From Acidimicrobiales bacterium (lineage in GTDB: Bacteria; Actinomycetota; Acidimicrobiia; Acidimicrobiales; Bin134): a stretch of DNA of 64,000 bases. The DNA is taken from contig OZ220474.1 in NCBI GenBank assembly GCA_965115985.1, positions 2,396,909 to 2,460,908 of the forward strand, in the 5' to 3' direction. The notes beneath the pieces were generated by a model. The model had not been told where the DNA came from, searched no databases, and saw only the letters and a program-made list of their open reading frames with translations. Shown here piece by piece: positions 335 to 60,588 of this stretch. Position 1 is the first letter of the stretch. Each line of letters begins with the position of its first letter. Made by a program: the position numbers and the translations under genes.

Positions 335-2584
335 CTAGGCCGGGCGGGTCAGCGGCAGTTCCACCACCATCTCGGTGAACTCGCCCGGTTCGGTGTTGAC
401 GGTGATGGTGCCACCATGCTCCCGAATGATGTCGTTGGACAGGGCCAGGCCCAAACCGGTGCCCTCATTGGTGGGTTTGGTGGTGAAGAAGGGGTCGAAG
501 ATTTTCTCGGCCACATCCGGGGGGATGCCGTTTCCGTTGTCCCTCACGCTGAGGATGGCGCTCTCCTCGGTACGGCGGGTCCTCAAAACGATGGTGGGGG
601 AGAAGTCATCGGCATCGGAGGAGCCCGATTCGATCAGTTCCTTCTGCTTCTTGTTGGTGGCGTAGCCGGCATTGGCCACGAAGTTGAGAAACACCCGGCC
701 CAGGTCTTGGGGCACGACCTCGAGTTGCCCCATGTCCGGGTCGAACTCCTCGTCCATGGTGACCTGGAAATCGGGATCCTGGGCTCGAGCACTGTGAAAG
801 GCCAGCAGGGAGTGCTCATGGATCAGATCGTTGATGTTGGTGAGCTGGGTCTCGCCCCCGCCCCGGCCCATCAGGAGCATGTCCTGGACGATCCGGTTGG
901 CCCGGCTGCCGTGCGATTGAATGCGTTCCAGGTTGTCGTTCAGGTCCTGGTTGATCTCCTCCAGCAGGTCACGCTGCTCGTCGGTGAGGTCGTCGATGAA
1001 CTCTTCCACTATCTCGGTCATCTCTTCGAGCAATTCGGCCGATGCCGCGGAGAAGTTGTTGATGAAGTTGAGCGGATTGCGGATCTCATGCGCCACTCCG
1101 GCGGTGACCTCTCCCAGCGCGGCCAGCTTCTCCCGGGCGACGATCTGATCCTGGGCTTGGCCCAACTCCTCCAGCACGGCTTGAAGTTCGTTGTTGCGCT
1201 CGCCCAGTTCCTGGGCCAGTTCCTCCACCAGGTTCAACCGCTGAATCTCCAGGGCGTGGCGACGGAACACCTCAAGAGCCGAGGCCATCTCCGCGATCTC
1301 GTCGCGACCACTGACCTCCACCTCCTCCTCCAACTCCCCCTTGGCCAGTGTTCGCATGCGACTGGACAGGCGGCCGATTCGGCGCAGTAGGACACGGCCC
1401 ACGAAGAGCCAACTGATCAGGCCGGCACCGATGACACCGATAACGCTGATGATCACCAGCAGGATTCGGGCAGTGCTGATGGTTTGCGCGGAGTTCTCGG
1501 TGGCCTCGTCGGCCCCGGCCCGGGCGGCGTCCACGAGGGCGTTGACCTCTTCCAGAAGTTCGACCGCGATGGTTTGGTTCTGAGCCAGAAGGTTGTTCTG
1601 GCGCTCGATGATCTTCAGGCGGTCGACCGATACCTCAAAGGCGCTTTGCTCCCCGTTGCCGAGGGCCAGTAGCTGGTTCACCGCTGATTCCAGTCCCGGG
1701 ATCATTTCCGACGCGGCCACCGCGGACAGGCTGATCCGGATGCGATCCTCCACCGACTCGAAGCTCTCCTGTAGAGGTTCGACGAACTCGGCGGTGGAAG
1801 CAATCAGAGCGCTGCCCATCAATTCGGATGCTTGGGCAACGTCGGCCTGCAACGCGTTGAAGTGTCGATAGAGGAGCAGCTCGTCTCCCGATGTGCGAGT
1901 GGCGGCATCGGTGGGCTCGGAAACGAAGTCTCGATATCCGGTTACCTGGAAGAAGAGTTGGTCGTCGATGGCGGGCAGAATGATGCTGTTGGCTTGATCG
2001 CTCAGAGCCGGAATCTGGTTCTGGAGTTTTTCGATCTCTCCGGTCAAGCCGTAGTAGTGGGGCATATCGGCAGTTATGGTCGTGATGTTCGTCTCCAACG
2101 TTCTGGCGGATTCCCGGATTGCTTCAACGTGTACGTCTCCCGGGTTCTCATCGGCGAGGAGTTCAAAATTCTGCTTGAACTCCTGTTGGGCAGTGGTGAC
2201 TTCTGCGGAGATGGTCGAGAATTGATCGGGGGAAGACGTGGTTAGTCTGGGAGCGGCTGCCACCAGAGCGCTGCTCAATTCGGCCAGCCGAAATGCGCCG
2301 GCCAACTCGGGTACGCTTTCCTGGTTCACTCGATTCTGGCTTCTGCTTACGTTGGTGAACGAGATCCAACTCACGACGCTGGCTACGATGGTCAGAACAA
2401 CGGCACCGAAGATCCCGGCATACAATTGAGTGGAAATCCGTCGATGGGCGGCCGGACGTTGAGCGCCGGTGTCGGGGTTCTCGATCTCGGGGGTTTGTGG
2501 GTCGGGTGTGGCGGTCACGGGCTGGTACTCCCCGGTGTCGGGGTTCTCGATCTCGGGGGTTTCTGGGTCGGGTGTGGCGGTCAC
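335..2584 (-). CDS. Sensor histidine kinase (2 TM, ~300-aa extracytoplasmic domain, HAMP, HisKA, HATPase_c)
   Basis: H-box HEIRNPL, DNGNGI and GTGLGL ATP-lid motifs, a HAMP-like segment after the second TM. GTG start 2584 overlaps the upstream TGA (GTGA). An alternative in-frame GTG lies at 2518 in the second repeat copy. Confidence 0.9.
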   Translation of the reverse strand: MTATPDPETPEIENPDTGEYQPVTATPDPQTPEIENPDTGAQRPAAHRRISTQLYAGIFGAVVLTIVASVVSWISFTNVSRSQNRVNQESVPELAGAFRLAELSSALVAAAPRLTTSSPDQFSTISAEVTTAQQEFKQNFELLADENPGDVHVEAIRESARTLETNITTITADMPHYYGLTGEIEKLQNQIPALSDQANSIILPAIDDQLFFQVTGYRDFVSEPTDAATRTSGDELLLYRHFNALQADVAQASELMGSALIASTAEFVEPLQESFESVEDRIRISLSAVAASEMIPGLESAVNQLLALGNGEQSAFEVSVDRLKIIERQNNLLAQNQTIAVELLEEVNALVDAARAGADEATENSAQTISTARILLVIISVIGVIGAGLISWLFVGRVLLRRIGRLSSRMRTLAKGELEEEVEVSGRDEIAEMASALEVFRRHALEIQRLNLVEELAQELGERNNELQAVLEELGQAQDQIVAREKLAALGEVTAGVAHEIRNPLNFINNFSAASAELLEEMTEIVEEFIDDLTDEQRDLLEEINQDLNDNLERIQSHGSRANRIVQDMLLMGRGGGETQLTNINDLIHEHSLLAFHSARAQDPDFQVTMDEEFDPDMGQLEVVPQDLGRVFLNFVANAGYATNKKQKELIESGSSDADDFSPTIVLRTRRTEESAILSVRDNGNGIPPDVAEKIFDPFFTTKPTNEGTGLGLALSNDIIREHGGTITVNTEPGEFTEMVVELPLTRPA

Positions 2585-2599
2585 GGGCTGGTACTCCCC
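2468..2599. repeat. 66-bp tandem duplication x2 spanning the SBP-stop/kinase-start GTGA junction
   Basis: ggtgtcggggttctcgatctcggggg... begins at 2468 and 2534 with 1 mismatch. It encodes the duplicated TATPDP(E/Q)TPEIENPDTG N-terminus of the kinase. Confidence 0.95.
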
Positions 2600-4014
2600 A
2601 GAGCACTAGCGGATCGGTAGCGGCCATTGGCATCCAGGACGGTCAAAAAGACGGCATCCGAACCTTGGTTGTCCACTGCCCGGTCTGCTTCTTCGCCGAA
2701 GTCGAGCACGAATCCGTCGATGCTGATCCGACCGGCACCCAATAGGTTCTCCAGGAAGCAGTCGCGGGTCGGATCGGAACCGCACGCTTCCAGTCCGGCT
2801 ATGGCCAGCCTCCCGGCCAGGTATCCCTCGAGGGACACGAAACCGGGTTCGGCTTCGGGGTCGAACCCGGCCAGGGCTCGGGTATAGGAGGCCACGACCG
2901 GGATGGAGTTGTCGTGGGGGAACGGAACCACCTGGGTGACGTAAACACCCTCCCCGCCCGTCCCCAACTCGGTGGCCAACGCGTTACTGCCCACGAAGGA
3001 GACCGTCATGAATATGGGATCGAAGCCGATGTGGCGGGCCCAGGATATGACGGCGGCGACCGGTTGATAGGCCCCCACCAGGATCACTGCCTCGGGATCG
3101 CCCCGTCTCAGGTCGAGCAGCGCCGACTTCACTGCGGTGGTGTTGCGGGGGTAAACGCCGGTGGCCACCGGGACCATTCCTCGCCGCCCCAGTGCGGCCA
3201 ACACCCCGTTGTAACCGGCCCGCCCGAACGAGTCGTCCTGGAACATCACCGCGATACGACTGATGCCGGCATCGGTGGTGAGACGTTCGACCATCTCCTC
3301 GGTCTCCTGGGCGTAGGAGGCCCGGAGGTTGACGATGTTGTCCTGACCGTCGTTGCGCAAAAAGCCCGCTCCGGTGAACGGAGCTACGTAGGGGACCCCG
3401 GCATCGGCTGCCACCGGGGTGGCCGAACGCGAAGTCGGTGTGCCCACCGCGCCGATGAGGGCGAAAACCCGCTCTTCGTCGATGAGGGCCTGGGTGTTGG
3501 TTATGGCCGCCTCGGGTTCGTAAGCGTCGTCGCGGGTTGTCAACTCGAGGCGACGTCCGTTCACCCCGCCCCGGCGGTTCACCTCCTCGAAGGCTGCCTG
3601 GATGCCGAGCCTCATGTTGATGCCCAGTTCCTGAGCCGGCCCGCTCAGGGCTGCCGACTGCCCGAAAACCACCCGGTCGTCGAAAACCCCGAGTCTTCCC
3701 GGGTCCACCAAGGTCGGTTCGGGAGTCGGCGGGGGCGTTGAAGGAGGAACCACCGGATCGGACCCCCCCGATCGACATCCCGATGCGATGAGGGCCAGCG
3801 CGGCGATGACGAGTCCTACTGGTCGCAGGGCGCGGGGTTTGATGACGAGTCCTACTGGTCGCAGGGCGCGGGGTTTGATGACGAGTCCTACTGGTCGCAG
3901 GGCGCGGGGTTTGATGACGAGTCCTACTGGTCGCAGGGCGCGGGGTTTGATGACGAGTTGGAGTTCCCTCGGTTTGGTGGACAGGTTGTTTTGCTGGATT
4001 GTAGTGGTGTTCAT
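2581..4014 (-). CDS. Periplasmic substrate-binding lipoprotein, LivK/Peripla_BP_6-like; native 5' end severed by IS3, current start inside the IS end
   Basis: The mature part resembles branched-chain amino-acid binding proteins. Lipobox LIASGC is preceded by four KPRALRPVGLVI repeats. ATG 4014 lies in the IS terminal repeat. The long track ORF 2581..4593 is read-through into the IS. Confidence 0.75.
   Translation of the reverse strand: MNTTTIQQNNLSTKPRELQLVIKPRALRPVGLVIKPRALRPVGLVIKPRALRPVGLVIKPRALRPVGLVIAALALIASGCRSGGSDPVVPPSTPPPTPEPTLVDPGRLGVFDDRVVFGQSAALSGPAQELGINMRLGIQAAFEEVNRRGGVNGRRLELTTRDDAYEPEAAITNTQALIDEERVFALIGAVGTPTSRSATPVAADAGVPYVAPFTGAGFLRNDGQDNIVNLRASYAQETEEMVERLTTDAGISRIAVMFQDDSFGRAGYNGVLAALGRRGMVPVATGVYPRNTTAVKSALLDLRRGDPEAVILVGAYQPVAAVISWARHIGFDPIFMTVSFVGSNALATELGTGGEGVYVTQVVPFPHDNSIPVVASYTRALAGFDPEAEPGFVSLEGYLAGRLAIAGLEACGSDPTRDCFLENLLGAGRISIDGFVLDFGEEADRAVDNQGSDAVFLTVLDANGRYRSASALGSTSP
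3805..3958. repeat. 36-bp in-frame tandem repeat x4.3 (left half of an array split by IS3)
   Basis: Unit gatgacgagtcctactggtcgcagggcgcggggttt encodes VIKPRALRPVGL. The array ends at the IS3 target-site duplication. Confidence 0.95.
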
Positions 4015-4880
4015 GCGGCTTGGTGGTGGGTGTAGGTCTGGGCGGGGGTGCGGTGGCCGAGTGAGCTGTGGTGGCGTTGGCGGTTGTGGAACACTTCGAT
4101 GTAGTCGAACAGGATGGTTCGGAGTCGTGTGTGGTGGAGGTGTTCCCAGGGGCCGTGGATGTGGCGGATTTCTTTTTTGAGGGTGGCCCAGAACGATTCC
4201 ATGGCGGCGTTGTCGTAGCAATCTCCGACGCTTCCCCAGGAGCCGACGAAGTCGGCTTGGGCGAGGCGGTCGCTGAACGCCATGGAGGTGTATTGGGTTC
4301 CGTGGTCGCTGTGGTGGATCAGTCCGGGTTCGGGTCGGCGGCGGGCGATGGCCATGGTCAAGGCGTCGACGACGAGGTCCGTGGTTTGGTGCTCGGCGAT
4401 GGACCAGCCCACCAGGGTGCGGTCGCAGAGGTCCAGGATTCCCGCCAGGTGGACTTTGGTGTCGGCGCAACCGAACGAGGTTATGTCGGCCACCCATTTG
4501 CGGTCGGGAGCCTCGGCGGTGAAGTCCCGGTCCAGCAGGTCCCCGGCGGGCACTGTTTTGGCGCCGGGATCGCGGCGACGACGGTGGGAACACGCCCCCA
4601 CCAGGCGGTTCGCTCGCATCAGGCGGGCCACCCGGTTGCGGCCCACGCGGTGACCGCGGCGGCGGAGCTGCTCGTGGATCCTCGGGGAGCCGTAGGTGCG
4701 TCTCGAGGTCTGGTGGATCTCGCGGATCTCGACCAAAAGCTCGGCGTCGGAGGTCTCACGCCTGGACGGGCGTCTTTTGGCCCAGGCGTAGAACCCGGAC
4801 CGGCACACCCCGGCGACGCGGCACAAATCGGTGACCCGGTACTCGGCTCGGTGGTCGTGGACGAACCGGTAGCCGATCAC
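4011..4880 (-). CDS. IS3 transposase OrfB (DDE integrase core)
   Basis: rve-type sequence (HSDHGTQYTS, CYDNAAMESFWATLK). It overlaps orfA by 4 nt. Stop TGA 4011-4013 overlaps ATG 4012-4014 of the SBP fusion start. Confidence 0.9.
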   Translation of the reverse strand: MIGYRFVHDHRAEYRVTDLCRVAGVCRSGFYAWAKRRPSRRETSDAELLVEIREIHQTSRRTYGSPRIHEQLRRRGHRVGRNRVARLMRANRLVGACSHRRRRDPGAKTVPAGDLLDRDFTAEAPDRKWVADITSFGCADTKVHLAGILDLCDRTLVGWSIAEHQTTDLVVDALTMAIARRRPEPGLIHHSDHGTQYTSMAFSDRLAQADFVGSWGSVGDCYDNAAMESFWATLKKEIRHIHGPWEHLHHTRLRTILFDYIEVFHNRQRHHSSLGHRTPAQTYTHHQAA

Positions 4881-5173
4881 CGGTTCGTCTCCCTCGCGAA
4901 ATACGCGGCCGCCTTCCCCAGAATCTCCAAATCGATCTCCTGCTGAGCCACCCGCCTGCGCAACCTCTTCAACTCCTCACGCTCGGACACGCTCAACGCC
5001 TCGGGATCGGCCGCTCGCTCGCGTCGCTCACGATCGGCCTTGACCCAGTTCCACAGCGTTCCCTCGCTGATCCCCAACGACCGGGCCACCCCAGCAACCG
5101 AACGACCCGACGACACCGCCAACGCCACCGCCTCACGACGAAACTCAGGCGGATACTTCGACACACGACCCAT
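4877..5173 (-). CDS. IS3 transposase OrfA (HTH)
   Basis: MGRVSKYPPEFRREAV... with a leucine-zipper-like end. An AGGAGG site lies upstream of ATG 5173. The track ORF extends to 5239, but that part is the IS end. Confidence 0.85.
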   Translation of the reverse strand: MGRVSKYPPEFRREAVALAVSSGRSVAGVARSLGISEGTLWNWVKADRERRERAADPEALSVSEREELKRLRRRVAQQEIDLEILGKAAAYFARETNR

Positions 5174-5238
5174 ACGAGCCTCCTTCCCCAGGGACCGAAC
5201 CCCCATAATCAGGTGTCCACCAAACCGGGGCAACTCCA

Positions 5239-5411
5239 AGTCCTACTGGTCGCAGGGCGCGGGGTTTGATGACGAGTCCTACTGGTCGCAGGGCGCGGGG
5301 TTTGGGGACGAGTCCTACTGGTCGCAGGGCGCGGGGTTTGATGACGAGTCCTGCTGGTCGCAGGGCGCGGGGTTTGGGGACGAGTCCTACTGGTCGCAGG
5401 GCGCGGGGTTT
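5239..5411. repeat. 36-bp tandem repeat x4.8 (right half of the IS-split array; alternating gat/ggg variants)
   Basis: Same unit as 3805-3958. Joining 3958 to 5242 restores a seamless 9-copy array. Confidence 0.95.
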
Positions 5412-5432
5412 CCTCCGGCCGGCGGGTTTCAC
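5242..5432 (-). pseudogene. Detached original 5' end of the SBP gene
   Basis: GTG 5432 overlaps the TGA of the upstream kinase gene (GTGA) and reads MKPAGRRKPRALRPVGLV... through the repeats until the IS3 insertion. Confidence 0.7.
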
Positions 5433-5860
5433 GACTCGGGAAGCACGACCAGCTTGAGGTGGTTGCGGCCGTGCTCGTTGTGGTACTCCAAATCCTGGCC
5501 CAAGGTCCGCACCAGATAGAGCCCCAGACCACCGATGGGGCGCTCGGCCAGTGACAACGTCAGGTCGGGCTCGGGGGCGTCCTCGAGTGGATTGAAGAGG
5601 GCTCCGTCGTCGGTCACGCGGATGGTCAGCGCTCCGTCGTCGGATTCCAGCTCGAGGTCGATGGTCGTGAGTCCGCTGGTGTCCCCATGGGTGAGGGTGT
5701 TGAGCACCAGTTCTTCCAGTATCAGATTGGCCCGCATGGTCAACGTCACCGGCCAGTTCTCCGCCTCGGCCATTTCTTCCAGGACATTCTCGATCTCCGG
5801 CAGGACGGACGAGGGTTCACCCTGTTCCAGAGGGAGAGAGAAGCGCAGCGATCGCTGCAT
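5429..5860 (-). CDS. RsbW/SpoIIAB-like anti-sigma-type serine kinase (HATPase_c_2)
   Basis: 143 aa with NTLTHG and GGLGLYLV motifs, in an operon with STAS and PP2C genes. Confidence 0.8.
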   Translation of the reverse strand: MQRSLRFSLPLEQGEPSSVLPEIENVLEEMAEAENWPVTLTMRANLILEELVLNTLTHGDTSGLTTIDLELESDDGALTIRVTDDGALFNPLEDAPEPDLTLSLAERPIGGLGLYLVRTLGQDLEYHNEHGRNHLKLVVLPES

Positions 5861-6103
5861 GTCAGCAGCTAGCTCCCACGGTCGGCGCGAGGATCGAGTG
5901 GCTAGCTCCCACGGTCGGCGCGAGGATCGAGCGGCTACCTCCCACGGTCGGCGCGAGGATCGAGCGGCTACCTCCCACGGTCGGCGCGAGGATCGAGCGG
6001 CTACCTCCCACGGTCGGCGCGAGGATCGAGCGGCTACCTCCCACGGTCGGCGCGAGGATCGAGCGACTAGCTCCCACGGTCGGCGCGAGGATCGAGGCGG
6101 CCA
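5861..6103. repeat. 33-bp tandem repeat x7 filling the whole intergenic gap
   Basis: Unit ggctacctcccacggtcggcgcgaggatcgagc with contiguous copies and no spacers. It carries the 80-codon ORF 5862..6104. Confidence 0.95.
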
Positions 6104-7255
6104 TCAGGGGCGGCGAAGCGTCAGACAGGTGATGTCGTCGGACTGGGGGGCGTCGCCCGTGAAACTCCTCACACTCTCGAACACCGCCTGGTTGGCGGCC
6201 GACGCGCTGTCGGGGGGGTGACCGTTGAAGACCTCGGTCAAACGATGCATACCGAACTGTTCGCTGGTGGCGTTCATGGCCTCGGTGACCCCATCGGTGA
6301 ACAACACGATGGTGTCCCCCGGGGCCAACGTGATCGTCTCCTGGGAGTAGGTGATGTCGGGAGCGACCCCCAGGGCTACACCATCGGTGAGCGGCAACTC
6401 GGTGACCGTGCCGTCCCTGCCGACCAGAAGCGGGGGGTCATGGCCCGCGGTCGAATAGGTGAACGACCCGGTGTCCGGGTTGAACAGGGCATAGATCAAT
6501 GTCACGAACATGAAGGTGGGGTTGTCCTGATGGAGTTGGTTGTTGACCTCGCCCAGCACCATTTCCGGGTCTCGGACACCGATGGCCGCCCCTTTCAGTG
6601 CGGTACGGCTGGACATCATGAACATCGACGCGGGGATTCCCTTGTCGGACACGTCGGCCACCACGAGGCCGATTTTGTCCTCGAGCGTGAAATAGTCGTA
6701 GAAGTCGCCGCCGACATTGCGAGCCGGTTCCATGTTGGCGGCCACTTCGTATCCGTCGTTGGCCGGGGGGGTCTTGGGCAGGATGGATTGCTGGAGTTGG
6801 CTGGCAATGCTCAGCTCGTTCTGAAGGGCCACCAGTTGGTCTCGGGACGACAACGCCTCCCGCCACTCGGCCAAGTGTTCCAAGGTGCGGGTGATGGTGA
6901 TCTTGAGGTCGTCGAAGTCGATGGGCTTGGTTACGAAATCGAAGGCCCCCCGGTTCATGGCGGTGCGGATGTTGTCCATGTCACCGTAGGCGGAGATGAT
7001 CACCGCCCTGAGATTGGGATCAACCCCGGGAAGCTGCTGGAGCAGGGTGAGGCCATCCATCTTGGGCATGTTGATGTCCGACAGCACCATATCGATGGTC
7101 GGATCGGCGTTGAGCTTTTCCAACGCCTCCACCCCATTTTGAGCAAAAACGAACTCGTATTCGTTGGAGCGGATCTTGCGGCGCATCCTCTGAAGGATCA
7201 GAGGTTCGAGGTCCGGTTCGTCGTCGACGACCAGGATTCTGTAGGGATGATGCAA
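6104..7255 (-). CDS. Response-regulator receiver fused to PP2C/SpoIIE phosphatase (RsbU-like)
   Basis: N-terminal REC domain (VVDDEPD...DINMPKMDG) and a C-terminal PP2C-type domain (GGDFYD, DGVTEA). Confidence 0.9.
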   Translation of the reverse strand: MHHPYRILVVDDEPDLEPLILQRMRRKIRSNEYEFVFAQNGVEALEKLNADPTIDMVLSDINMPKMDGLTLLQQLPGVDPNLRAVIISAYGDMDNIRTAMNRGAFDFVTKPIDFDDLKITITRTLEHLAEWREALSSRDQLVALQNELSIASQLQQSILPKTPPANDGYEVAANMEPARNVGGDFYDYFTLEDKIGLVVADVSDKGIPASMFMMSSRTALKGAAIGVRDPEMVLGEVNNQLHQDNPTFMFVTLIYALFNPDTGSFTYSTAGHDPPLLVGRDGTVTELPLTDGVALGVAPDITYSQETITLAPGDTIVLFTDGVTEAMNATSEQFGMHRLTEVFNGHPPDSASAANQAVFESVRSFTGDAPQSDDITCLTLRRP

Positions 7256-7259
7256 GGGA

Positions 7260-7589
7260 TTACCCCTGTTTGGCGTCTTCCACCGATGGAAATACGTTGA
7301 TGATCTGGTCGAAACCGCTGATGCGGAATACGTCGCCCACGGTCTCCGACAACGAGCAGATGCTGAAGGACTTGTTCTGCTTGTCGAGGCCCTGGGCCGC
7401 CATCAGCAGTACCCGCAACCCGGCACTGCTTATGTATTCGAGGCCGCCGAGATCCAGGATGACCTTCTGGTCGCCGGGATCGAACAAGCCCTGGAGGGAC
7501 TCGAGGAGATCGGATGCGTTGGATCCGTCCACCCGGCCGGAAGCATTGACGACCAGTACATCACCATTGCGATCATGACTCAATTCCAT
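7260..7589 (-). CDS. STAS-domain anti-sigma-factor antagonist (RsbV/SpoIIAA-like)
   Basis: MELSHDRNGDVLVVNASGRVD...YISSAGLRVL. ATG 7589 is preceded by AAGAGAGG. The track start 7649 is probably too long. Confidence 0.85.
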   Translation of the reverse strand: MELSHDRNGDVLVVNASGRVDGSNASDLLESLQGLFDPGDQKVILDLGGLEYISSAGLRVLLMAAQGLDKQNKSFSICSLSETVGDVFRISGFDQIINVFPSVEDAKQG

Positions 7590-11508: not shown

Positions 11509-11747
11509 TGCACGGGTGGGGCTTATTGGCGGGAACCGAGGAGGTCGGTGGTGACGCGGTGCAGGAGCGGGGTTTATCGGCGGGAACCGAGGAGGTCGGT
11601 GGTGACGCGGTGCAGGAGCGGGGTTTATCGGCGGGAACCGAGGAGGTCGGTGGTGACGCGGTGCAGGAGCGGGGTTTATCGGCGGGAACCGAGGAGGTCG
11701 GTGGTGACGCGGTGCAGGAGCGGGGTTTATCGGCGGGAACCGAGGAG
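11509..11747. repeat. 51-bp tandem repeat x4.6 copying the 3' end and TAA stop of the nucleotidyltransferase gene
   Basis: ttatcggcgggaaccgaggag... occurs at 11523 (variant), 11574, 11625, 11676 and 11727 (native). Confidence 0.95.
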
Positions 11748-12533
11748 GGTGCGGGCAATCTCCAGGTCCTCGGGGTTGGTGATCCCGATCCAGGATTCGT
11801 CGGTGGTGACGACCCGGACGGTGAGGGCCCCGGCCTCCATTCGGGCCGCGACGGCCCGGGGGAGGAGGTACTCGGCGGTGGGACTGTGGCGGTTCTCCTC
11901 GAGGAAGCGGGCGAAGCCGTCCCGCAGGCTGTTCATGAACCCGGGGGGGAAGGCCCACAGGTTCATGGACACCAGGGTGTCGGCGGGAAAATCGTTGCCG
12001 GCTCGAGATATCCCCTCCTGTTCGGTGATGCCGGTGAGACGATCACCGTCCACGCGGCACACGCCCCGGGTCACCGAGCCCTCGGCCGGCAGGGTGCGGT
12101 CGAGGTGGTAGCCGCACAACCAGGCCTCGTTGTCGGCCATTGTTCTCATGGCTCGGGCCAGGGCGGTGTACGCGGTGGGGCCGTAGTAATCGTCGGCGTT
12201 GCCCACCATGAACGGGCCGGTCACCGCCCCGGCGGCCGACAGCACGGCGTGGGCCGTGCCCCATGGCTTCGGGCGGGGAGGGCCGTGCTCGTCCTGGCGC
12301 ACGAAGGTCACCTCCAGATCGGCGGGTAGTCCGCCGCGAGCCTCGAAGTGTCGGTTCACGTCGGCCTCGATGTCGCTTCGCACGATGAGCACCACTCGGT
12401 CGGCCCCCGCGGCCCGGGCATCGGTAATGGCGAAGTCCAAAAAGGCCTCGCCCCGGGGTCCCACCCGGGCGAGTTGCTTGGTCCCGCCGAAACGCGACCC
12501 CAGCCCCGCGGCCATCACTATGAAAGTGAACAT
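11727..12533 (-). CDS. Nucleotidyltransferase-family protein (sugar-phosphate NTP-transferase fold)
   Basis: N-terminal MAAGLGSRFGG..K signature. 268 aa. Confidence 0.75.
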   Translation of the reverse strand: MFTFIVMAAGLGSRFGGTKQLARVGPRGEAFLDFAITDARAAGADRVVLIVRSDIEADVNRHFEARGGLPADLEVTFVRQDEHGPPRPKPWGTAHAVLSAAGAVTGPFMVGNADDYYGPTAYTALARAMRTMADNEAWLCGYHLDRTLPAEGSVTRGVCRVDGDRLTGITEQEGISRAGNDFPADTLVSMNLWAFPPGFMNSLRDGFARFLEENRHSPTAEYLLPRAVAARMEAGALTVRVVTTDESWIGITNPEDLEIARTLLGSRR

Positions 12534-23209: not shown

Positions 23210-25441
23210 TCAGAAATCGAGGGCGTCGCGGTCGACCAGGTTGCTGTGGGCCACCAGGAAGTCCTTGCGGCGGCCCACGTCGGACCCCATCAGGGTCTCG
23301 AACATCTCGTCGGCGGCGGTGCCGTCGTCCAGGGTGAGCCGGCGCAGGGTGCGGGTGGTCGGGTCGAGGGCGCACTCGGCCAACTCGTCGGTGTCCATCT
23401 CTCCCAGCCCCTTGAACCGGGACCAACGAATGTTCTCGGCCTTGCGGTTGCCCCGGGCCAGCTCGGCGGTTTTTTGGTCCCGCTCGGCATCGGACCACGC
23501 CCGATGGGTTCGGTCGCCCACTTTGGCGGTGTACAGCGGGGGCTGGGCGGCGAACACCCGGCCCGCCTCCAGCATCGGACGCATGAACCGGTGGATGAGG
23601 GTGAGCAGCAGGCAGCGGATGTGACTGCCGTCCACATCGGCGTCGCACAGGATGATGATGCGCCCGTACCGGGCCTTGGCCAAGTCGAAGCCGTCGCCCG
23701 AACCGGCCCCCATGGCGGTGAACAGGGCCTGGGCCTCGGCATTGTCCAGCACCTGCTTCACCGACGACTTGGCTGCGTTCACCACCTTGCCCCGCAGCGG
23801 GAGGATGGCCATGTTCTCGGCGTTGCGCCCGGCCTTGGCCGGCCCGGCGGCCGAGTCGCCCTCCACCAGGATCAACTCGGAATCCGGGCCGTGGACCCGG
23901 CAGTCGGCCAGCTTGTCGGGCATCCCGGTGGAGCCCAACGACGCGGCCCGTCGTCGGTTCTCCAGGGTCTGACGGGCCGACACCCGGGTCACCACCGCGT
24001 CGACGATCTTGGACTGCAAGGCGGTCACATGGCTCTTGGGACCGGTTTGGAACCAGCTCTCCAACCCGTCCTTGAGCACGTTGTAGACGATGGACTGCAC
24101 CGGTGGGGTGCCCAGCTCCTGTTTGGTCTGGCCCCGGAATTGCGGTTCGGGCAGGGTGACCTTGATCGCGGCCACCAGGCCCTCCTGCACGTCCTCCCGC
24201 TGGGCCCGGTCGTGGCCCTGCTTGGCCAGGCGGGCCAGCTTCTTGGAGTCGGCCAGCAGGCTGTCGTTGATGGCCCGGGTCAGGGCCCTCTCGAAGCCGG
24301 TCAGGTGGGTGCCGCCGTGGGGGGTGGGGATGGTGTTGACGAACGTGGCCACCCGGGTGTCGTAGTCCTTCACCCAGCGCATGGCGATGTCCACCTGGCA
24401 CCGGCGCTCCACCATGGTCATGGCTCCGTCCACCGGGACCTTCTCCTCGAAGGCCCCCTCCCCGGGAATGGAGACGATCTCGGTCACGGTCTCCGACGTC
24501 GACAGGTGGCCCACCAGGTCGGCCAGCCCGCCGTGGGAGATCAGATCGACCGGCTCGTTGTCGTGGCCCCGTCGCTTGTCCTCCAGCGTGATCCGCAATC
24601 CGGGTACCAAAAAGCAGGCCTGTTGGGCTCGCTCCCTGATGGATTCGTAGTCCACCGTTGCATCGGGGTCGAACATGTCCAGGTCGGGCCAGAAGCGGAT
24701 ACGGGTGCCGGTTCTGCGGGTGGTGCGGGCCTTGCGGAGCTTGTGGCCCCCGACGAAGCGGTCCCCGACGAACTGGCCCGCCTTCTGGCCGGAGAACCAG
24801 AGTTGCCAGGTGGCCCCGTCCCGGTCCACCTCGGCCCTGAGCCGGGTGGACAGGGCATTGACCACCGAGGCCCCCACACCGTGCAGCCCGCCGGAGGCAC
24901 TGTAGACCCCGCCCCCGAACTTGCCGCCGGAGTGCAGCTCGGTGAGCACCACCTCCAGGGCCGACACCTTCTTGGTGGGGTGCGGATCGATCGGGATGCC
25001 CCGACCGTTGTCGCCCACCTCGATCGAACCGTCGGCATGGAGGGTCACGTCGATACGGGTGGCGAATCCGGCCCCGGCCTCGTCCACCCCGTTGTCGATC
25101 AGCTCCCACACCAGATGCATGAGGCCGTCACCGCCGGTGCTCCCGATGTACATCCCCGGGCGTTTGCGAACCGCTTCCAGCCCCTCCAGGGTGACGATGT
25201 CGGCGGCGTCGTAGCGGACGCGGCCTTTGGCTTTGCCTTTGCCGCGGCCGTTGCCCTTGCTATTGCCGCGGCCGTTGCTCTTGTCGTTGCCGCCGCCGTT
25301 GCTCTTGTCGTTGCCGCGGCCGTTGCTCTTGCCTTTGTCGTTGCCGTTGCCATTGCCATTGCCATTGTCGGCCTGCGCCGCGGTGAGGAGGTTGACGTCT
25401 CGGCTCGGGGCGGGGGAAGCGGAGTCGGTTCGGGTCACCAT
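23210..25441 (-). CDS. Type IIA topoisomerase ATPase subunit (GyrB/ParE/TopoM-like) with G/N/K-rich N-terminal extension
   Basis: GHKL ATPase, TOPRIM (EGDSAAG) and PLRGK motifs. ATG 25441 overlaps the stop of the A subunit (ATGgTGA). Confidence 0.9.
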   Translation of the reverse strand: MVTRTDSASPAPSRDVNLLTAAQADNGNGNGNGNDKGKSNGRGNDKSNGGGNDKSNGRGNSKGNGRGKGKAKGRVRYDAADIVTLEGLEAVRKRPGMYIGSTGGDGLMHLVWELIDNGVDEAGAGFATRIDVTLHADGSIEVGDNGRGIPIDPHPTKKVSALEVVLTELHSGGKFGGGVYSASGGLHGVGASVVNALSTRLRAEVDRDGATWQLWFSGQKAGQFVGDRFVGGHKLRKARTTRRTGTRIRFWPDLDMFDPDATVDYESIRERAQQACFLVPGLRITLEDKRRGHDNEPVDLISHGGLADLVGHLSTSETVTEIVSIPGEGAFEEKVPVDGAMTMVERRCQVDIAMRWVKDYDTRVATFVNTIPTPHGGTHLTGFERALTRAINDSLLADSKKLARLAKQGHDRAQREDVQEGLVAAIKVTLPEPQFRGQTKQELGTPPVQSIVYNVLKDGLESWFQTGPKSHVTALQSKIVDAVVTRVSARQTLENRRRAASLGSTGMPDKLADCRVHGPDSELILVEGDSAAGPAKAGRNAENMAILPLRGKVVNAAKSSVKQVLDNAEAQALFTAMGAGSGDGFDLAKARYGRIIILCDADVDGSHIRCLLLTLIHRFMRPMLEAGRVFAAQPPLYTAKVGDRTHRAWSDAERDQKTAELARGNRKAENIRWSRFKGLGEMDTDELAECALDPTTRTLRRLTLDDGTAADEMFETLMGSDVGRRKDFLVAHSNLVDRDALDF
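25215..25372. repeat. In-frame low-complexity 24-27-bp repeats (GNDKSNGRG-type)
   Basis: gccgcggccgttgctcttgtcgtt variants are repeated about six times in the 5' end of the B-subunit gene. Confidence 0.8.
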
Positions 25442-28047: not shown

Positions 28048-28968
28048 TCATAGTTGTTGTGTTGGGGCGGCGGGGATGCGGGTGCGGCTGAGGCGCACGG
28101 TCTGGCCGAAGGAACGAACGGCGGCTCGAAGCGCTCTCAGGCCGAGCATGGACACCTGTCCGGTGGTGCGATCCCGGTGGGGCACGGGCACTTCGGCCAG
28201 GTGGCCCCCGGATCGGGCCAGCATCCCCGAGAGCACCACGTTGGGGGCGAAGGTGTCGTCGGGGATTAGCGCCACCAACCGGGCCAGCACGGTCGAGCGC
28301 ATGAGTCGGTAGGGGCAGTTCACGTCGGCCAGCTTGCAGCCGAAGGCGGCTCGGGCGGTGAACCGGGCCACCCGGGAGATGGCCCGCCGCCCCGGTGACT
28401 GGTTCCGATTGGTGCGGATGCCGATGACCGCGTCCACCTCGCGGCGCAGGTTCCACAGCTCGCCGAATGCGTCGGCGGGCATCTCGTCGTCGGAGTCGGT
28501 CTGGAACACCCAGTCGGCGGTGATCACCCCCCGTCGGTAGCCCCGCAGCACGGTGGGCCCGTGTCCGCTATTGGCCTTGACGTCCACCACCAGGCAAGGG
28601 TGGTGCTCGGCCACCTCCCGCAGGATCTCCTCGCTGGCATCGGTGGCCCCGTCCACGATGGTCACCAGCTCGTAGCGGATTCCCAGGCGGTCGAGAACCC
28701 CGAGCCAGTCATCGACCACCTTGGCGATGATCCCCTCCTCGTTGTGTACCGGCATGACCACGCTCAGATCCAGCCGTTCGTCCGGTGGGGTGGTGGTCAT
28801 TGCCGCCGGTTCCAGGCGTTCGTCCGGTGGGGTGGTGGTCATTGCCGCCGGTTCCAGCCGTTCGTCCGGTGGGGTGGTGGATGTCACTTCGGGCTCGGTA
28901 CCGGCCGATGATTGCCGGTGGGGGTTGCCAGTGGTTGATGCCGCAGTCGCCTCGGGTTCGGCGGTCAC
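28048..28968 (-). CDS. Family-2 glycosyltransferase (Dpm1/polyprenol-phosphate type)
   Basis: VVMPVHNEEG...DGATD...DSDDE motifs. GTG 28968 overlaps the SDR stop (GTGA). Alternative ATGs lie inside the repeat (for example 28800). Confidence 0.8.
   Translation of the reverse strand: MTAEPEATAASTTGNPHRQSSAGTEPEVTSTTPPDERLEPAAMTTTPPDERLEPAAMTTTPPDERLDLSVVMPVHNEEGIIAKVVDDWLGVLDRLGIRYELVTIVDGATDASEEILREVAEHHPCLVVDVKANSGHGPTVLRGYRRGVITADWVFQTDSDDEMPADAFGELWNLRREVDAVIGIRTNRNQSPGRRAISRVARFTARAAFGCKLADVNCPYRLMRSTVLARLVALIPDDTFAPNVVLSGMLARSGGHLAEVPVPHRDRTTGQVSMLGLRALRAAVRSFGQTVRLSRTRIPAAPTQQL
28770..28890. repeat. 42-bp in-frame tandem repeat x2.9 in the GT2 N-terminus
   Basis: It encodes TTPPDERLEPAAM x3. 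Each copy carries an ATG. Confidence 0.9.
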
Positions 28969-47091: not shown

Positions 47092-47198
47092 GCGGATTGC
47101 GGACCGCCGGCGGGTACCTGCACACACGGCCCGTACAGGCCAGTTTCTCCCAAGGTTGCTCCCCCCAGAATCAGGTGTCCACCGAACCGGGGCAACTC
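47092..47198 (-). mobile_element. Remnant of an IS3-family end (terminal repeat plus first orfA codons)
   Basis: cccc.a.aatcaggtgtccacc.aaccggggcaactccaa matches 5196-5238. The similarity continues over the orfA start region (cacacg.ccc.tac). Confidence 0.7.
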
Positions 47199-47202
47199 CA
47201 AC

Positions 47203-47231
47203 TTGACACGGGGGGGGGGGGGGGGTAGTTA
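47203..47231 (+). promoter_or_regulatory. TTGACA-c-G16-TAGTTA element (candidate promoter with homopolymer spacer)
   Basis: A -35-like TTGACA (47203-08), a 17-nt spacer made of c plus 16 G (47210-25), then TAGTTA, 11 nt before ATG 47243. An identical 28-nt core lies inverted at 61200-61227. Confidence 0.4.
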
Positions 47232-47242
47232 TACAGACCGCT

Positions 47243-47509
47243 ATGACAAGTCCCTACGACAGTCCGGTTGCCAAGCCCCCCAATGGATTGGCGACGGCAG
47301 GATTCATACTTTCCTTCTTTACGCTTCTCCCGTTCTTCGGGTTCTTCGTCTTCATCCTTAGCGTGATCTTTTGTAGTATCGGGTTGCGTCGGGCCAACGC
47401 TGAGGGCCGTCAGGGCAAAGGTCTGGCGATAGCCGGCCTCGTAATCAACATAGCCACGCTGCTTCTCACAATCATTTTCGTCATAGCGATACTAGGGGCA
47501 GCCTCGTAA
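47243..47509 (+). CDS. Small membrane protein, DUF4190-like (2 TM)
   Basis: NGLATAGFILSFF... and GLAIAGLVINIATLLLTIIFVI. Lower G+C than the flanks. Confidence 0.7.
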   Translation: MTSPYDSPVAKPPNGLATAGFILSFFTLLPFFGFFVFILSVIFCSIGLRRANAEGRQGKGLAIAGLVINIATLLLTIIFVIAILGAAS

Positions 47510-47605
47510 TAGCGATTTTTGCTGATTGCGCGGCTATTACACAGCTTGGGTGGCAGGAGGTTGTGCGGCCCGGGTTGATGGGATAGGTGTCGTCAAGCTG
47601 GCTGG

Positions 47606-58692: not shown

Positions 58693-60588
58693 TCAGCCAA
58701 GTCGTAGGTTGAGGTTGCCGTTGCCCCAGCAGGTGATGGTGCCGTCGATGCGCAGCTTGCACGAATGCGACCCGCCGGCGGATACCGCGGCGAATCGGAT
58801 GTCGGGTGCCTCCGCCCGCCCGTGGTCGTTGTCGCCCCAGCAGGTGATCGTGCCATCGGTGCGCAGCCCGCACGAATGCGATCCGCCGGCGGATACTGCG
58901 GTGAATTGCCCGCCGGGTGCTACTACCTGCCCGTGGTCGTTGTCGCCCCAGCAGGTGATCGTGCCGTTGGTGCGCAAACCACAAGAATGCGATCCGCCGG
59001 CGGATACCGCGGTGAATTGCCCGCCGGGTGCCTCCGCCCGCCTGGAGTCGTTGTCGCCCCAGCAGGTGATCGTGCCGTTGGTGCGCAAACCACAAGAATG
59101 CGATCCGCCGGCGGATACCGCGGTGAATTGCCCGCCGGGTGCCTCCGCCCGCCCGGAGCCGTTGTAGCCCCAGCAGGTGATCGTGCCGTTGGTGCGCAAA
59201 CCACAAGAGTGCGATCCGCCGGCGGATACCGCGGTGAACTGTCCGTCCGGTGCCTCCGCCTGCCCGTAGCCGTTGTTGCCCCAGCAGGTGATCGTGCCAT
59301 CGGTGCGCAAACCGCACGAATGCTCGCCGCCGGCGGATACCGCGGTGAATTGCCCGCCGGGTGCCTCCGCCCGCCCGTTGTTGCGCCAGCAGGTGATCGT
59401 GCCATCGGTGCGCAAACCGCACGAATGCGATCCGCCGGCGGATACCGCGGCGAACTGTCCATCCGGTGCCTCCGCCCGCCCGTAGCCGTTGTCGCCCCAG
59501 CAGGTGATCGTGCCGTTGATGCGCGCACCGCACGAATGCGATCCGCCGGCGGATACCGCGGCGAATCGGATGTCGGGTGCCTCCGCCCGTCCGTGGTCGT
59601 TGTCGCCCCAGCAGGTGATCGTGCCATCGGTGCGCAGCCCGCACGAATGCGATCCGCCGGCGGATACTGCGGTGAATTGCCCGCCGGGTGCTACTACCTG
59701 CCCGTGGTCGTTGTCGCCCCAGCAGGTGATCGTGCCGTTGGTGCGCAAACCACAAGAATGCGATCCGCCGGCGGATACCGCGGTGAATTGCCCGCCGGGT
59801 GCCTCCGCCCGCCTGGAGTCGTTGTAGCCCCAGCAGGTGATCGTGCCGTTGGTGCGCAAACCACAAGAATGCGATCCGCCGGCGGATACCGCGGCGAACT
59901 GCCCGTCCGGTGCCTCCGCCCGCCCGTAGCCGTTGTCGCCCCAGCAGGTGATCGTGCCATCGGTGCGCAAACCACAAGAATGCGGTCCGCCGGCGGATAC
60001 CGCGGCGAACTGCCCGTCCGGTGCCTCCGCCCGCCCGTAGCCGTTGTCGCCCCAGCAGGTGATCGTGCCATCGGTGCGCAAACCGCACGAATGCTCGCCG
60101 CCGGCGGATACCGCGGCGAACTGCCCGTCCGGTGCCTCCGCCTGCCCGTAGCCGTTGTTGCCCCAGCAGGTGATCGTGCCATCGGTGCGCAAACCGCACG
60201 AATGCTCGCCGCCGGCGGATACCGCGGTGAACTGTTCTGCCGTGACTCGTTCTGGGTTGGGGGTAGGTGTGGGTTGGAGGGTGAGGGGGGAGCTGTTGAG
60301 CCATTGGCCGGTGGAGGCGGTGGTGGGGAAGTAGCGCTTGTCGGGTAGGAGGCGGTCGCTCCATGTGTTGTCGGGCTGGCGGGTTTGGAGGGCGAACTCG
60401 ATCCTGCCGCTGTTCAATTTGCGGGCGGTGATTCGTACTTCCCGCGTACCATCATCAGCAGTCTGGGTTTGGGTGGCTACAGTGGGAGCAACGGCTGTGA
60501 CCCCTACTGAGATTGCCAGTATCACCGCGCTGGCCCACACCAACGATTTTACTTTTTTCTTGCCCATTTTTACTTTTCCCCTGTCCAT
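58693..60588 (-). CDS. Secreted RCC1-like repeat protein (one N-terminal module + 14 x 37-aa blades)
   Basis: Signal/TM region KSLVWASAVILAISVGVTAVA. The unit GQFTAVSAGGSHSCGLRTDGTITCWGDNGYGRAEAPD is 111 bp. Alternative start at 60567. Confidence 0.85.
   Translation of the reverse strand: MDRGKVKMGKKKVKSLVWASAVILAISVGVTAVAPTVATQTQTADDGTREVRITARKLNSGRIEFALQTRQPDNTWSDRLLPDKRYFPTTASTGQWLNSSPLTLQPTPTPNPERVTAEQFTAVSAGGEHSCGLRTDGTITCWGNNGYGQAEAPDGQFAAVSAGGEHSCGLRTDGTITCWGDNGYGRAEAPDGQFAAVSAGGPHSCGLRTDGTITCWGDNGYGRAEAPDGQFAAVSAGGSHSCGLRTNGTITCWGYNDSRRAEAPGGQFTAVSAGGSHSCGLRTNGTITCWGDNDHGQVVAPGGQFTAVSAGGSHSCGLRTDGTITCWGDNDHGRAEAPDIRFAAVSAGGSHSCGARINGTITCWGDNGYGRAEAPDGQFAAVSAGGSHSCGLRTDGTITCWRNNGRAEAPGGQFTAVSAGGEHSCGLRTDGTITCWGNNGYGQAEAPDGQFTAVSAGGSHSCGLRTNGTITCWGYNGSGRAEAPGGQFTAVSAGGSHSCGLRTNGTITCWGDNDSRRAEAPGGQFTAVSAGGSHSCGLRTNGTITCWGDNDHGQVVAPGGQFTAVSAGGSHSCGLRTDGTITCWGDNDHGRAEAPDIRFAAVSAGGSHSCKLRIDGTITCWGNGNLNLRLG

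Follow-up and report, generated by a model that had tools for sequence, protein, structure and literature searches.

An IS3-family insertion within a tandem array at the signal peptide of a lipoprotein gene in an Acidimicrobiales genome

Autotransporters tolerate an additional N-terminal stretch in front of an otherwise normal signal (extended signal peptide region, ESPR). Tandem arrays between the genes of signalling operons are known as well. Mycobacterial interspersed repetitive units (MIRUs) lie in intergenic positions in senX3-regX3 of Mycobacterium tuberculosis (PMC4213456), and the part of PMC3184786 that summarises Supply et al. 1997 describes small open reading frames (ORFs) of MIRUs that overlap the adjacent genes of a polycistron. 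Here we analysed a stretch of 64,000 nucleotides from an Acidimicrobiales bacterium (contig OZ220474.1, positions 2,396,909 to 2,460,908; called the window below). It contains an operon with a gene order that is conserved in relatives: STAS, receiver-PP2C, mini-ORF, RsbW-like kinase, Peripla_BP_6 lipoprotein (the binding protein), and HAMP histidine kinase. The N-terminal part of the binding-protein gene contains a 36-bp tandem array, and an insertion sequence (IS) of the IS3 family splits this array in two.

We consider the following account probable as a whole: a duplication-prone lineage acquired an in-frame array in the signal peptide of the binding protein, an IS3-family element was recently inserted into this array, and the insertion uncoupled the binding-protein gene from the operon. 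The features are collected in Table 1.

The 36-bp array and the signal peptide

The initial annotation had proposed that removal of 3959-5241 rejoins the two half-arrays into nine units, and excision in silico bore this out. The deletion left exactly nine 36-bp units in frame, and the rejoined unit 5 was identical to units 4 and 6-9. Units 1-3 vary (ATC to CCC, I to P; GTA to GCA, V to A). Nine is the present sum of the two half-arrays, and the number of units in either half could have changed since the IS entered. The restored product has 522 residues and reads MKPAGRR(KPRALRPVGLV[P/I])x9 AALALIASGC.... The body of the binding protein matches the Peripla_BP_6 family (LivK-like) over the full length of its profile (E = 2e-55; score 189 bits, with the gathering cut-off at 31.7 bits; positions 4-342 of the 343 in the profile). 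No unit of the array contains an in-frame ATG, GTG, or TTG, so an internal start within the array is unlikely.

The restored gene had been proposed to start at GTG 5432, coupled to the RsbW-like gene through a GTGA overlap, and the coupled starts of the relatives back this strongly. Homologues of the binding protein are from sponge-associated Acidimicrobiia ('Candidatus Poriferisocius' and 'Poriferisodalis') and are 75-85% identical. The best match outside the window (85%) is from the closest relative, L002 (NZ_OZ241836.1). The junction was extracted from each fetched locus; the loci of the Poriferisocius clade are L001-L035, and the counts are on 33. In this clade a GTG start overlaps the RsbW stop (GTGA or TAGTG), and in about 27 of the 33 loci the stretch from this start to the cysteine of the lipobox measures exactly 29 residues (in L001, for example, MRDSALGLLHKVRPVGVAIAALALALSAC, read directly). 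The leader of the window with a single unit (MKPAGRR + KPRALRPVGLVI + AALALIASGC) also has 29 residues. Since it aligns to the relatives without gaps at this length, the 36-bp unit is native coding sequence, codons 8-19 of the lipoprotein signal peptide, and not a foreign insert. The repeat thus copies the n-region and the start of the h-region, as had been claimed. By this comparison, GTG 5432 is the ancestral start.

L002 has the same GTGA-coupled start, followed by an in-frame 51-bp duplication (x2) of the same segment of the signal: M RRASRPKIRALWQVGLA RRASRPKIRALWRVGLVIAVLALVAPAC. With one 51-bp unit its leader has 29 residues, and the duplication is independent of the 36-bp array in the window. 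In the NCBI annotation of L002 (5899-6010), the binding protein P0002 (412 residues) begins at an internal GTG (MGLVIAV…) and is without the charged n-region. The real start is more likely the GTGA-coupled GTG 111 nt upstream, which gives a 46-residue leader with a 17-residue duplication. A 29-residue signal that is constant in dozens of relatives has been lengthened twice independently, with 12 residues x9 in the window and 17 residues x2 in L002. These leaders offer a natural series for how much N-terminal extension a Sec/Lsp signal tolerates.

A hydropathy profile (13-residue Kyte-Doolittle mean) gave a single hydrophobic core with a maximum of 2.68, adjoining the lipobox, and the repeats never exceeded 0.79. 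The one-unit form fits a lipoprotein signal for signal peptidase II, with 29 residues, a charged n-region, the core of 2.68, and LIASGC. The nine-unit leader has 125 residues to the cysteine, with 30 K/R and no D/E, and it keeps the core and the lipobox. By the positive-inside rule, a positively charged extension is expected to stay cytoplasmic. Since the extension is rich in K/R, has no D/E, and precedes a single core located at the lipobox, we infer that it would stay in the cytoplasm and be removed with the signal by signal peptidase II. A full-text literature search found no report of a repeat-expanded lipoprotein signal peptide.

The IS3-family element and the interrupted gene

The element is a canonical member of the IS3 family, and the insertion itself is ordinary. 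The initial annotation had placed an IS3 insertion at this site, and the ends, the 3-bp duplication, and the Pfam matches of orfA and orfB all agree with this. The inverted repeats (TGGAGTTGCCCCGGTTTGGTGGACA and TGGAGTTCCCTCGGTTTGGTGGACA; the other end reads …TGTCCACCAAACCGAGGGAACTCCA) are identical at 23 of 25 positions, the termini are of the TG...CA type as in the IS3 family, and the target-site duplication is perfect (3 bp; 3-5 bp in the family). As in other members, orfA encodes the helix-turn-helix (HTH) part and orfB, in the -1 frame, the DDE/rve part. Three-frame translation showed that the frame of orfB is open for about 35 codons upstream of the orfA stop, and the GTG of orfB overlaps the orfA TGA as GTGA (4880-4877). 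By eye, no slippery heptamer (X XXY YYZ / A AAA AAG type) was recognised in the overlap (4877-4985).

The window holds only one full copy of the IS, whose orfB product is P0243. Four proteins encoded on the same 3,371,582-bp chromosome (P0121, P0241, P0247, and P0248) differ from it by 1-4 residues, and more diverged, truncated, or fused OrfAB variants are also present on this chromosome (P0122, P0123, P0244-P0246, and P0249). By these variants, the genome carries many copies of the IS, and the element has been active recently. Because the target duplication is perfect, the ORFs of the IS are intact, and the flanking units are identical, the insertion in the window is likely to be recent.

Two observations concern other copies of the element. 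In P0122, P0123, P0245, and P0246, which are encoded outside the window, OrfA and OrfB are fused via small indels in the overlap zone, with fusion points at …QQEID|SGDSGEGG… and …YFAR|RDEPV…; these indels would mark where the natural frameshift would occur. Within the window, 47109-47200 (minus strand) is a 92-bp remnant, the solo end of a related IS, which shares 77% identity with the inverted repeat and leader at the left end of the element. A poly-C tract of about 15 C (about 47208-47225) lies directly upstream of it, with a small ORF region of low GC beyond (47280-47520).

After the insertion, translation from the ancestral GTG yields only a truncated leader (Table 1). The ATG at 4012-4014 had been described as overlapping the orfB stop in frame with the remaining four repeats and the binding protein, and this is correct (ORF 2581..4593). 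It had also been placed inside the terminal repeat of the IS, but it actually lies further inside the element, 29 nt beyond the inner edge of the right inverted repeat (3959-3983). This ATG is the sole in-frame start upstream of the lipobox for the binding-protein body, and a protein made from it would have an 80-residue leader with the same single hydrophobic core and lipobox. The gene caller of the database used it (P0001, 477 residues), which is an annotation trap. No GGAGG-like Shine-Dalgarno motif precedes it; the preceding bases are caccaagccgc (…caccaagccgcATG).

We considered whether the IS carries a terminator or an outward-facing sigma-70 promoter and set this idea aside, as a crude scan that was not tuned to Actinobacteria found no terminator-like or sigma-70-like site on its minus strand. 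Since this strand has no terminator-like site, it is plausible that transcripts read through into the genes of the binding protein and the kinase. A TACAAT seen by eye at 4003-3998 lies downstream of ATG 4014, and a transcript from there would not help the binding protein. Most likely the insertion uncoupled the binding-protein gene and strongly reduced or abolished its expression, and the GTGA-coupled kinase may suffer polar effects.

An allele with an empty site was not observed, because the searches found no DNA of the same species. Exact-protein look-ups with the RsbW-like protein, P0001, P0002, P0121, and P0243 gave no record of a same-species allele, and the 33 nt common to all 36-bp units had no exact match in the metagenome contigs scanned. 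A protein-guided metagenome scan with the RsbW-like protein returned a single locus, at 74% identity. The scan of the genome collection found no relative closer than 85%, and the protein database held no binding protein between 85% and 99% identity.

The operon and the tandem arrays of the lineage

Every cistron start in the operon overlaps or abuts the preceding stop, and coupling along the whole chain is therefore probable. The coupling of the downstream histidine kinase to the binding protein, noted in the initial annotation, agrees with the reading of the junction at 2584. Between the phosphatase and RsbW-like genes, the mini-ORF forms a relay (TGATG … TGAcATG): it starts at an ATG that shares bases with the stop of the phosphatase gene (TGA), and a single nucleotide separates its own TGA from the RsbW ATG. 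An equivalent mini-ORF of 14-18 codons is found in about 27 of the 33 Poriferisocius-clade loci (5519-5572 in L001), where the geometry is kept and the peptide is not. In L002 (5354-5469), a duplication of 71 bp turned the mini-ORF into two ORFs in series (TAATG … TAATG … TGAcATG), with the relay kept. At the other end of the operon, the 66-bp duplication would leave the kinase with an N-terminus that is longer by 22 residues or, alternatively, with a second GTGA start that is not coupled. The operon thus holds four arrays, all with periods that are multiples of 3: 66 bp x2, the 36-bp array, 33 bp x7.2, and 36/72 bp upstream of the STAS gene. All of them preserve the reading frame or the stop/start relay. 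Since the duplications respect the coupled chain, this comparative evidence indicates that coupling matters.

Table 1. Features of the operon and of the IS3-family insertion in the window (positions are those of the window)
Feature	Position	Strand	Basis or remarks
HAMP-HisKA-HATPase histidine kinase	335..2584	minus	Pfam; GTG 2584 overlaps the binding-protein TGA (GTGA)
66-bp x2 in-frame duplication (last 5 codons of the binding protein, TGA, kinase GTG)	2466..2599	minus	creates a second GTGA
Lipoprotein substrate-binding protein body (h-region, lipobox LIASGC, Peripla_BP_6)	2581..3810	minus	reading frame intact
36-bp array, downstream half (end of unit 5 and units 6-9, all identical)	3805..3958	minus	Tandem Repeats Finder, 4.3 copies, 100% matches
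Target-site duplication, right copy, ACT on minus (AGT on plus)	3956..3958	minus	direct reading and in silico excision
IS3-family insertion sequence, intact	3959..5238 (1,280 bp)	minus, same orientation as the operon	TGGAG...CTCCA ends, 25-bp inverted repeats
IS orfB, DDE integrase core	4011..4880	minus	Pfam rve E = 6e-21, HTH_21 E = 2e-18
IS-internal ATG overlapping the orfB TGA 4013-4011 (ATGA)	4012..4014	minus	in frame with four units and the binding protein
IS orfA, HTH transposase N-terminal part	4877..5173	minus	Pfam HTH_Tnp_1, E = 1.4e-16; GGAGG upstream of the ATG at 5173
Truncated leader ORF, 95 codons	5145..5432	minus	GTG, then 4.7 units, then the IS left end; stop 26 nt past the orfA ATG
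Target-site duplication, left copy, ACT on minus (AGT on plus)	5239..5241	minus	direct reading and in silico excision
36-bp array, upstream half (units 1-4 and first 29 nt of unit 5)	5239..5411	minus	Tandem Repeats Finder, 4.8 copies, 94% matches
RsbW-like anti-sigma serine kinase	5429..5860	minus	Pfam HATPase_c_2, E = 4e-20
Ancestral GTG start of the binding-protein gene	5430..5432	minus	overlaps the RsbW-like TGA 5431-5429 as GTGA
Bridging mini-ORF, 80 codons, swollen by an in-frame 33-bp x7.2 array	5862..6104	minus	ORF list and Tandem Repeats Finder
Receiver + SpoIIE/PP2C phosphatase fusion (RsbU-like)	6104..7255	minus	Pfam
STAS anti-anti-sigma (RsbV-like), first cistron	7260..7589	minus	Pfam STAS E = 4e-20; same order in L001

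The 36-bp array is not special to this gene, as it is one of about 23-32 arrays in the window. With thresholds of a period of at least 30 bp, an identity of at least 85%, and at least 1.9 copies, the window has 23 arrays in 64 kb (0.36 per kb), which cover about 9% of it, and L002 has 5 in 13 kb (0.38 per kb). The 80 other related loci have 6 arrays in 1.01 Mb (0.006 per kb), so the window is about 60-fold denser. When periods of at least 15 bp are included, there are 32 arrays in the window (0.5 per kb). About 17 of these 32 touch gene edges or intergenic junctions on a gene map based on GC content at third codon positions (GC3). Arrays that lie strictly inside genes have periods divisible by 3. 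Most junction arrays outside the operon have periods that are not divisible by 3 (65, 67, 65, 71, 38, 62, 40, 32, 56, 47, and 50 bp), and the only divisible one is 51 bp. This is the pattern that would be expected from purifying selection filtering frequent random duplications.

We compared the units of all arrays by all-against-all local alignment. Only the two 36-bp halves and two 111-bp arrays were related to each other, while all others were within the range of shuffled controls. An interspersed repeat family was thus ruled out, and since the units of different arrays are unrelated, the arrays are local duplications. Structured RNA or a known RNA family was also ruled out: Rfam had no match anywhere in the window, and the RNA folds of the arrays were no better than those of shuffles (z = -1.2 for 36-bp x3 and +2.0 for 33-bp x3). 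A literature search returned nothing relevant on tandem repeats in sponge Acidimicrobiia.

Several arrays outside the operon lie at the starts of genes. On the minus strand at 11518-11811, a 51-bp x4.5 array inflates the junction between a nucleotidyl-transferase gene and an Fpg-like gene, which are 3 nt apart in L001, and the true N-terminus of the Fpg-like protein must be the conserved (M)PELPEVE. At 28769-28880 (minus), the start region of a glycosyltransferase-like gene (VVMPVHNEEG…) is repeated in a 42-bp x2.7 in-frame array (…EPAAMTTTPPDERL…), so that several ATG codons in frame could serve as the start. A 24/48-bp repeat at 25219-25370 (minus) encodes a low-complexity extension rich in G, N, and K (…GNGNGNDKGKSNGRGNDKSNGGGNDKSNGRGN…) at the N-terminus of a GyrB-looking protein (…RKRPGMYIGSTG…). 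The two related 111-bp (37-codon) arrays, at 58723-60231 and 62259-63740, have 13.6 and about 13 copies and presumably belong to repeat-domain proteins.

It is doubtful, but conceivable, that a sublineage of the sponge symbiont 'Candidatus Poriferisocius' went through a genome-wide burst of local tandem duplication (about one array per 2-3 kb) whose arrays persist at junctions, are constrained by frame or relay in coupled operons, give rise to the 125-residue signal peptide and the 80-codon relay ORF, and might be contingency loci for the tuning of expression. If this is true and copy number alters coupling or export, the arrays would be such loci genome-wide, and IS insertions would be one more switch. 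The load of junction minisatellites could also mislead gene callers, as in the 477-residue call from the ATG in the IS and the internal-GTG call in L002, and it raises the question of a causal peculiarity in repair or replication.

Alternative readings and comparison with known systems

The sequence of events that we favour is as follows. In this sponge-symbiont, 'Candidatus Poriferisocius'-like genome, translation of the operon is probably coupled through all cistrons. The lineage, as represented by the window and L002, would gather local tandem duplications at a very high rate, with replication slippage or unequal recombination as the likely mechanism. The duplications would survive where they are harmless, mainly at gene junctions and tolerant N-termini, and since the junctions of this operon are coding, only frame-preserving duplications would persist in it. 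One of them probably copied codons 8-19 of the 29-codon signal peptide and grew to about nine units, giving the 125-residue leader of the precursor. The multicopy IS3-family element would then have entered unit 5 in the orientation of the operon and split the body of the binding protein from its coupled GTG. Transcription probably still reads through, and translation would be uncoupled and could start only at the fortuitous ATG 4014-4012, by re-initiation after orfB.

Several points weigh against this account. Export of the 125-residue leader is a prediction, and the loss of binding-protein function is likewise inferred. The genome-wide density of arrays is extrapolated from 64 kb of the window genome and 13 kb of L002, and the junction count uses our own GC3-based selection of ORFs and not a curated annotation. 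Moreover, the frames of the binding protein and the kinase are fully intact, and the in-frame ATG overlaps the orfB stop in the same coupling motif that is found elsewhere in the operon, so residual expression coupled to the transposase is possible.

The initial annotation went further and proposed an apparent rescue and a possible rewiring. In this reading, the binding protein would start at ATG 4014-4012, ribosomes would reach it by termination and re-initiation along the chain orfA-GTGA-orfB-ATGA-binding protein-GTGA-kinase, and expression of the sensing module would depend on how the transposase is translated. The overlap of this ATG with the orfB TGA, its frame with four units and the body, the similar GTGA overlap of orfA and orfB, and the choice of the gene caller (P0001) all fit such a chain, as do the co-orientation of the IS with the operon with no terminator-like site on that strand, the intact ORFs of the binding protein and kinase, and the core and lipobox kept in the 80-residue leader. 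However, initiation there would have no Shine-Dalgarno-like sequence and would need ribosomes that finish orfB, whose translation in IS3 elements is usually weak. The ORF 2581..4593 is open far upstream simply from high GC, and a recent insertion would account for the intact frames just as well. The proposal turns on an ATG that happens to be in frame, and a random insertion in the array would be co-oriented and in frame in about 1 in 6 cases (1/2 x 1/3). Another copy of the IS likewise has an open frame across its end, which encodes the C-terminus of P0122, and the fusion of the IS and the binding protein is therefore not evidence of selection. Our analysis did not support this proposal, and we regard it as unlikely.

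It is still less probable that the IS targets tandem or repetitive DNA, so that its position in the array was not random. IS1397 and ISKpn1 are IS3-family members that insert into palindromic units, and the IS in the window does sit in an array; but the 36-bp array has no palindromic structure, the right flank of the P0122 copy has no repeat within 27 residues, and only a single insertion was inspected. With arrays covering about 9% of the window and insertions likely to be tolerated there, chance suffices. We find it very improbable that the array is an untranslated intercistronic minisatellite, with the binding protein starting at a non-canonical or internal codon of the last unit. Elsewhere in the window, non-coding arrays with periods not divisible by 3 predominate at the junctions, and L002 has the internal GTG (…RVGLVI) used for P0002. 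In the window, however, the codon at this position is GTA, none of the units offers a usual start codon in frame, and an internal start would leave no charged n-region. The GTG that overlaps RsbW and the 29-residue length are conserved in about 27 of the 33 relatives, and the duplications in the window and L002 are both in frame. The least probable reading, to which we give almost no weight, is a misassembly of the IS or of the number of repeats. Tandem arrays and multicopy IS are typical sites of such errors, but here the target duplication is perfect, the inverted repeats match, excision restores a perfect unit, the assembly is of chromosome scale (3.37 Mb), and L002, an independent assembly, shows the same habit of duplication. 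Uncoupling of the binding-protein gene by a recent insertion remains the reading that we prefer.

Compared with known systems, the IS resembles the IS3 family in the -1 overlap of orfA and orfB, the TG...CA ends, the 25-bp inverted repeats, the 3-bp duplication, and the size of 1.28 kb, and its nearest named homologue is the IS3 family transposase of Iamia sp. SCSIO 61187 (65% identity). It differs from typical members in that no canonical slippery heptamer was seen by eye, orfA and orfB overlap as GTGA, and fused OrfAB variants are present in the same genome. The operon is similar to partner-switching modules (RsbV/RsbW/RsbU) with two-component input, as it combines STAS, HATPase_c_2, and receiver-PP2C proteins with a histidine kinase and a binding protein; unlike these modules, no sigma-factor gene was identified in the operon.

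The arrays are comparable to MIRU-type variable-number tandem repeats (VNTRs). In both, units of tens of base pairs lie between the cistrons of a signalling operon, small ORFs overlap the stop or start of their neighbours (here in the 33-bp array and the L002 relay), and copy number differs between relatives. The units in the operons, 33-71 bp against 40-100 bp for MIRUs, are intercistronic in the same sense: the 33-bp array is in the mini-ORF, the 66-bp duplication spans a GTGA, and the 36-bp array follows one. However, MIRUs are interspersed related units that are thought to have spread by insertion, whereas each array here has its own locally derived unit and no relatedness across loci was found. 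The density of 0.36 arrays per kb is also far above that of MIRUs, with about 40-50 loci per mycobacterial genome, and in contrast to the separate ORFs of MIRUs, the 36-bp array shares one reading frame with the signal peptide of the downstream gene. Thus, the 36-bp array behaves like a MIRU-type VNTR but does not belong to the MIRU family. The leader itself is like lipoprotein signals cleaved by signal peptidase II in its charged n-region, one h-region, and lipobox (…LIASGC), and like ESPR-type extended signals in the extra N-terminal stretch before a normal signal. Unlike in either of them, the extension here is a perfect tandem repeat of part of the signal, 12 residues x9, which gives a leader of 125 residues compared with 29 in the relatives.

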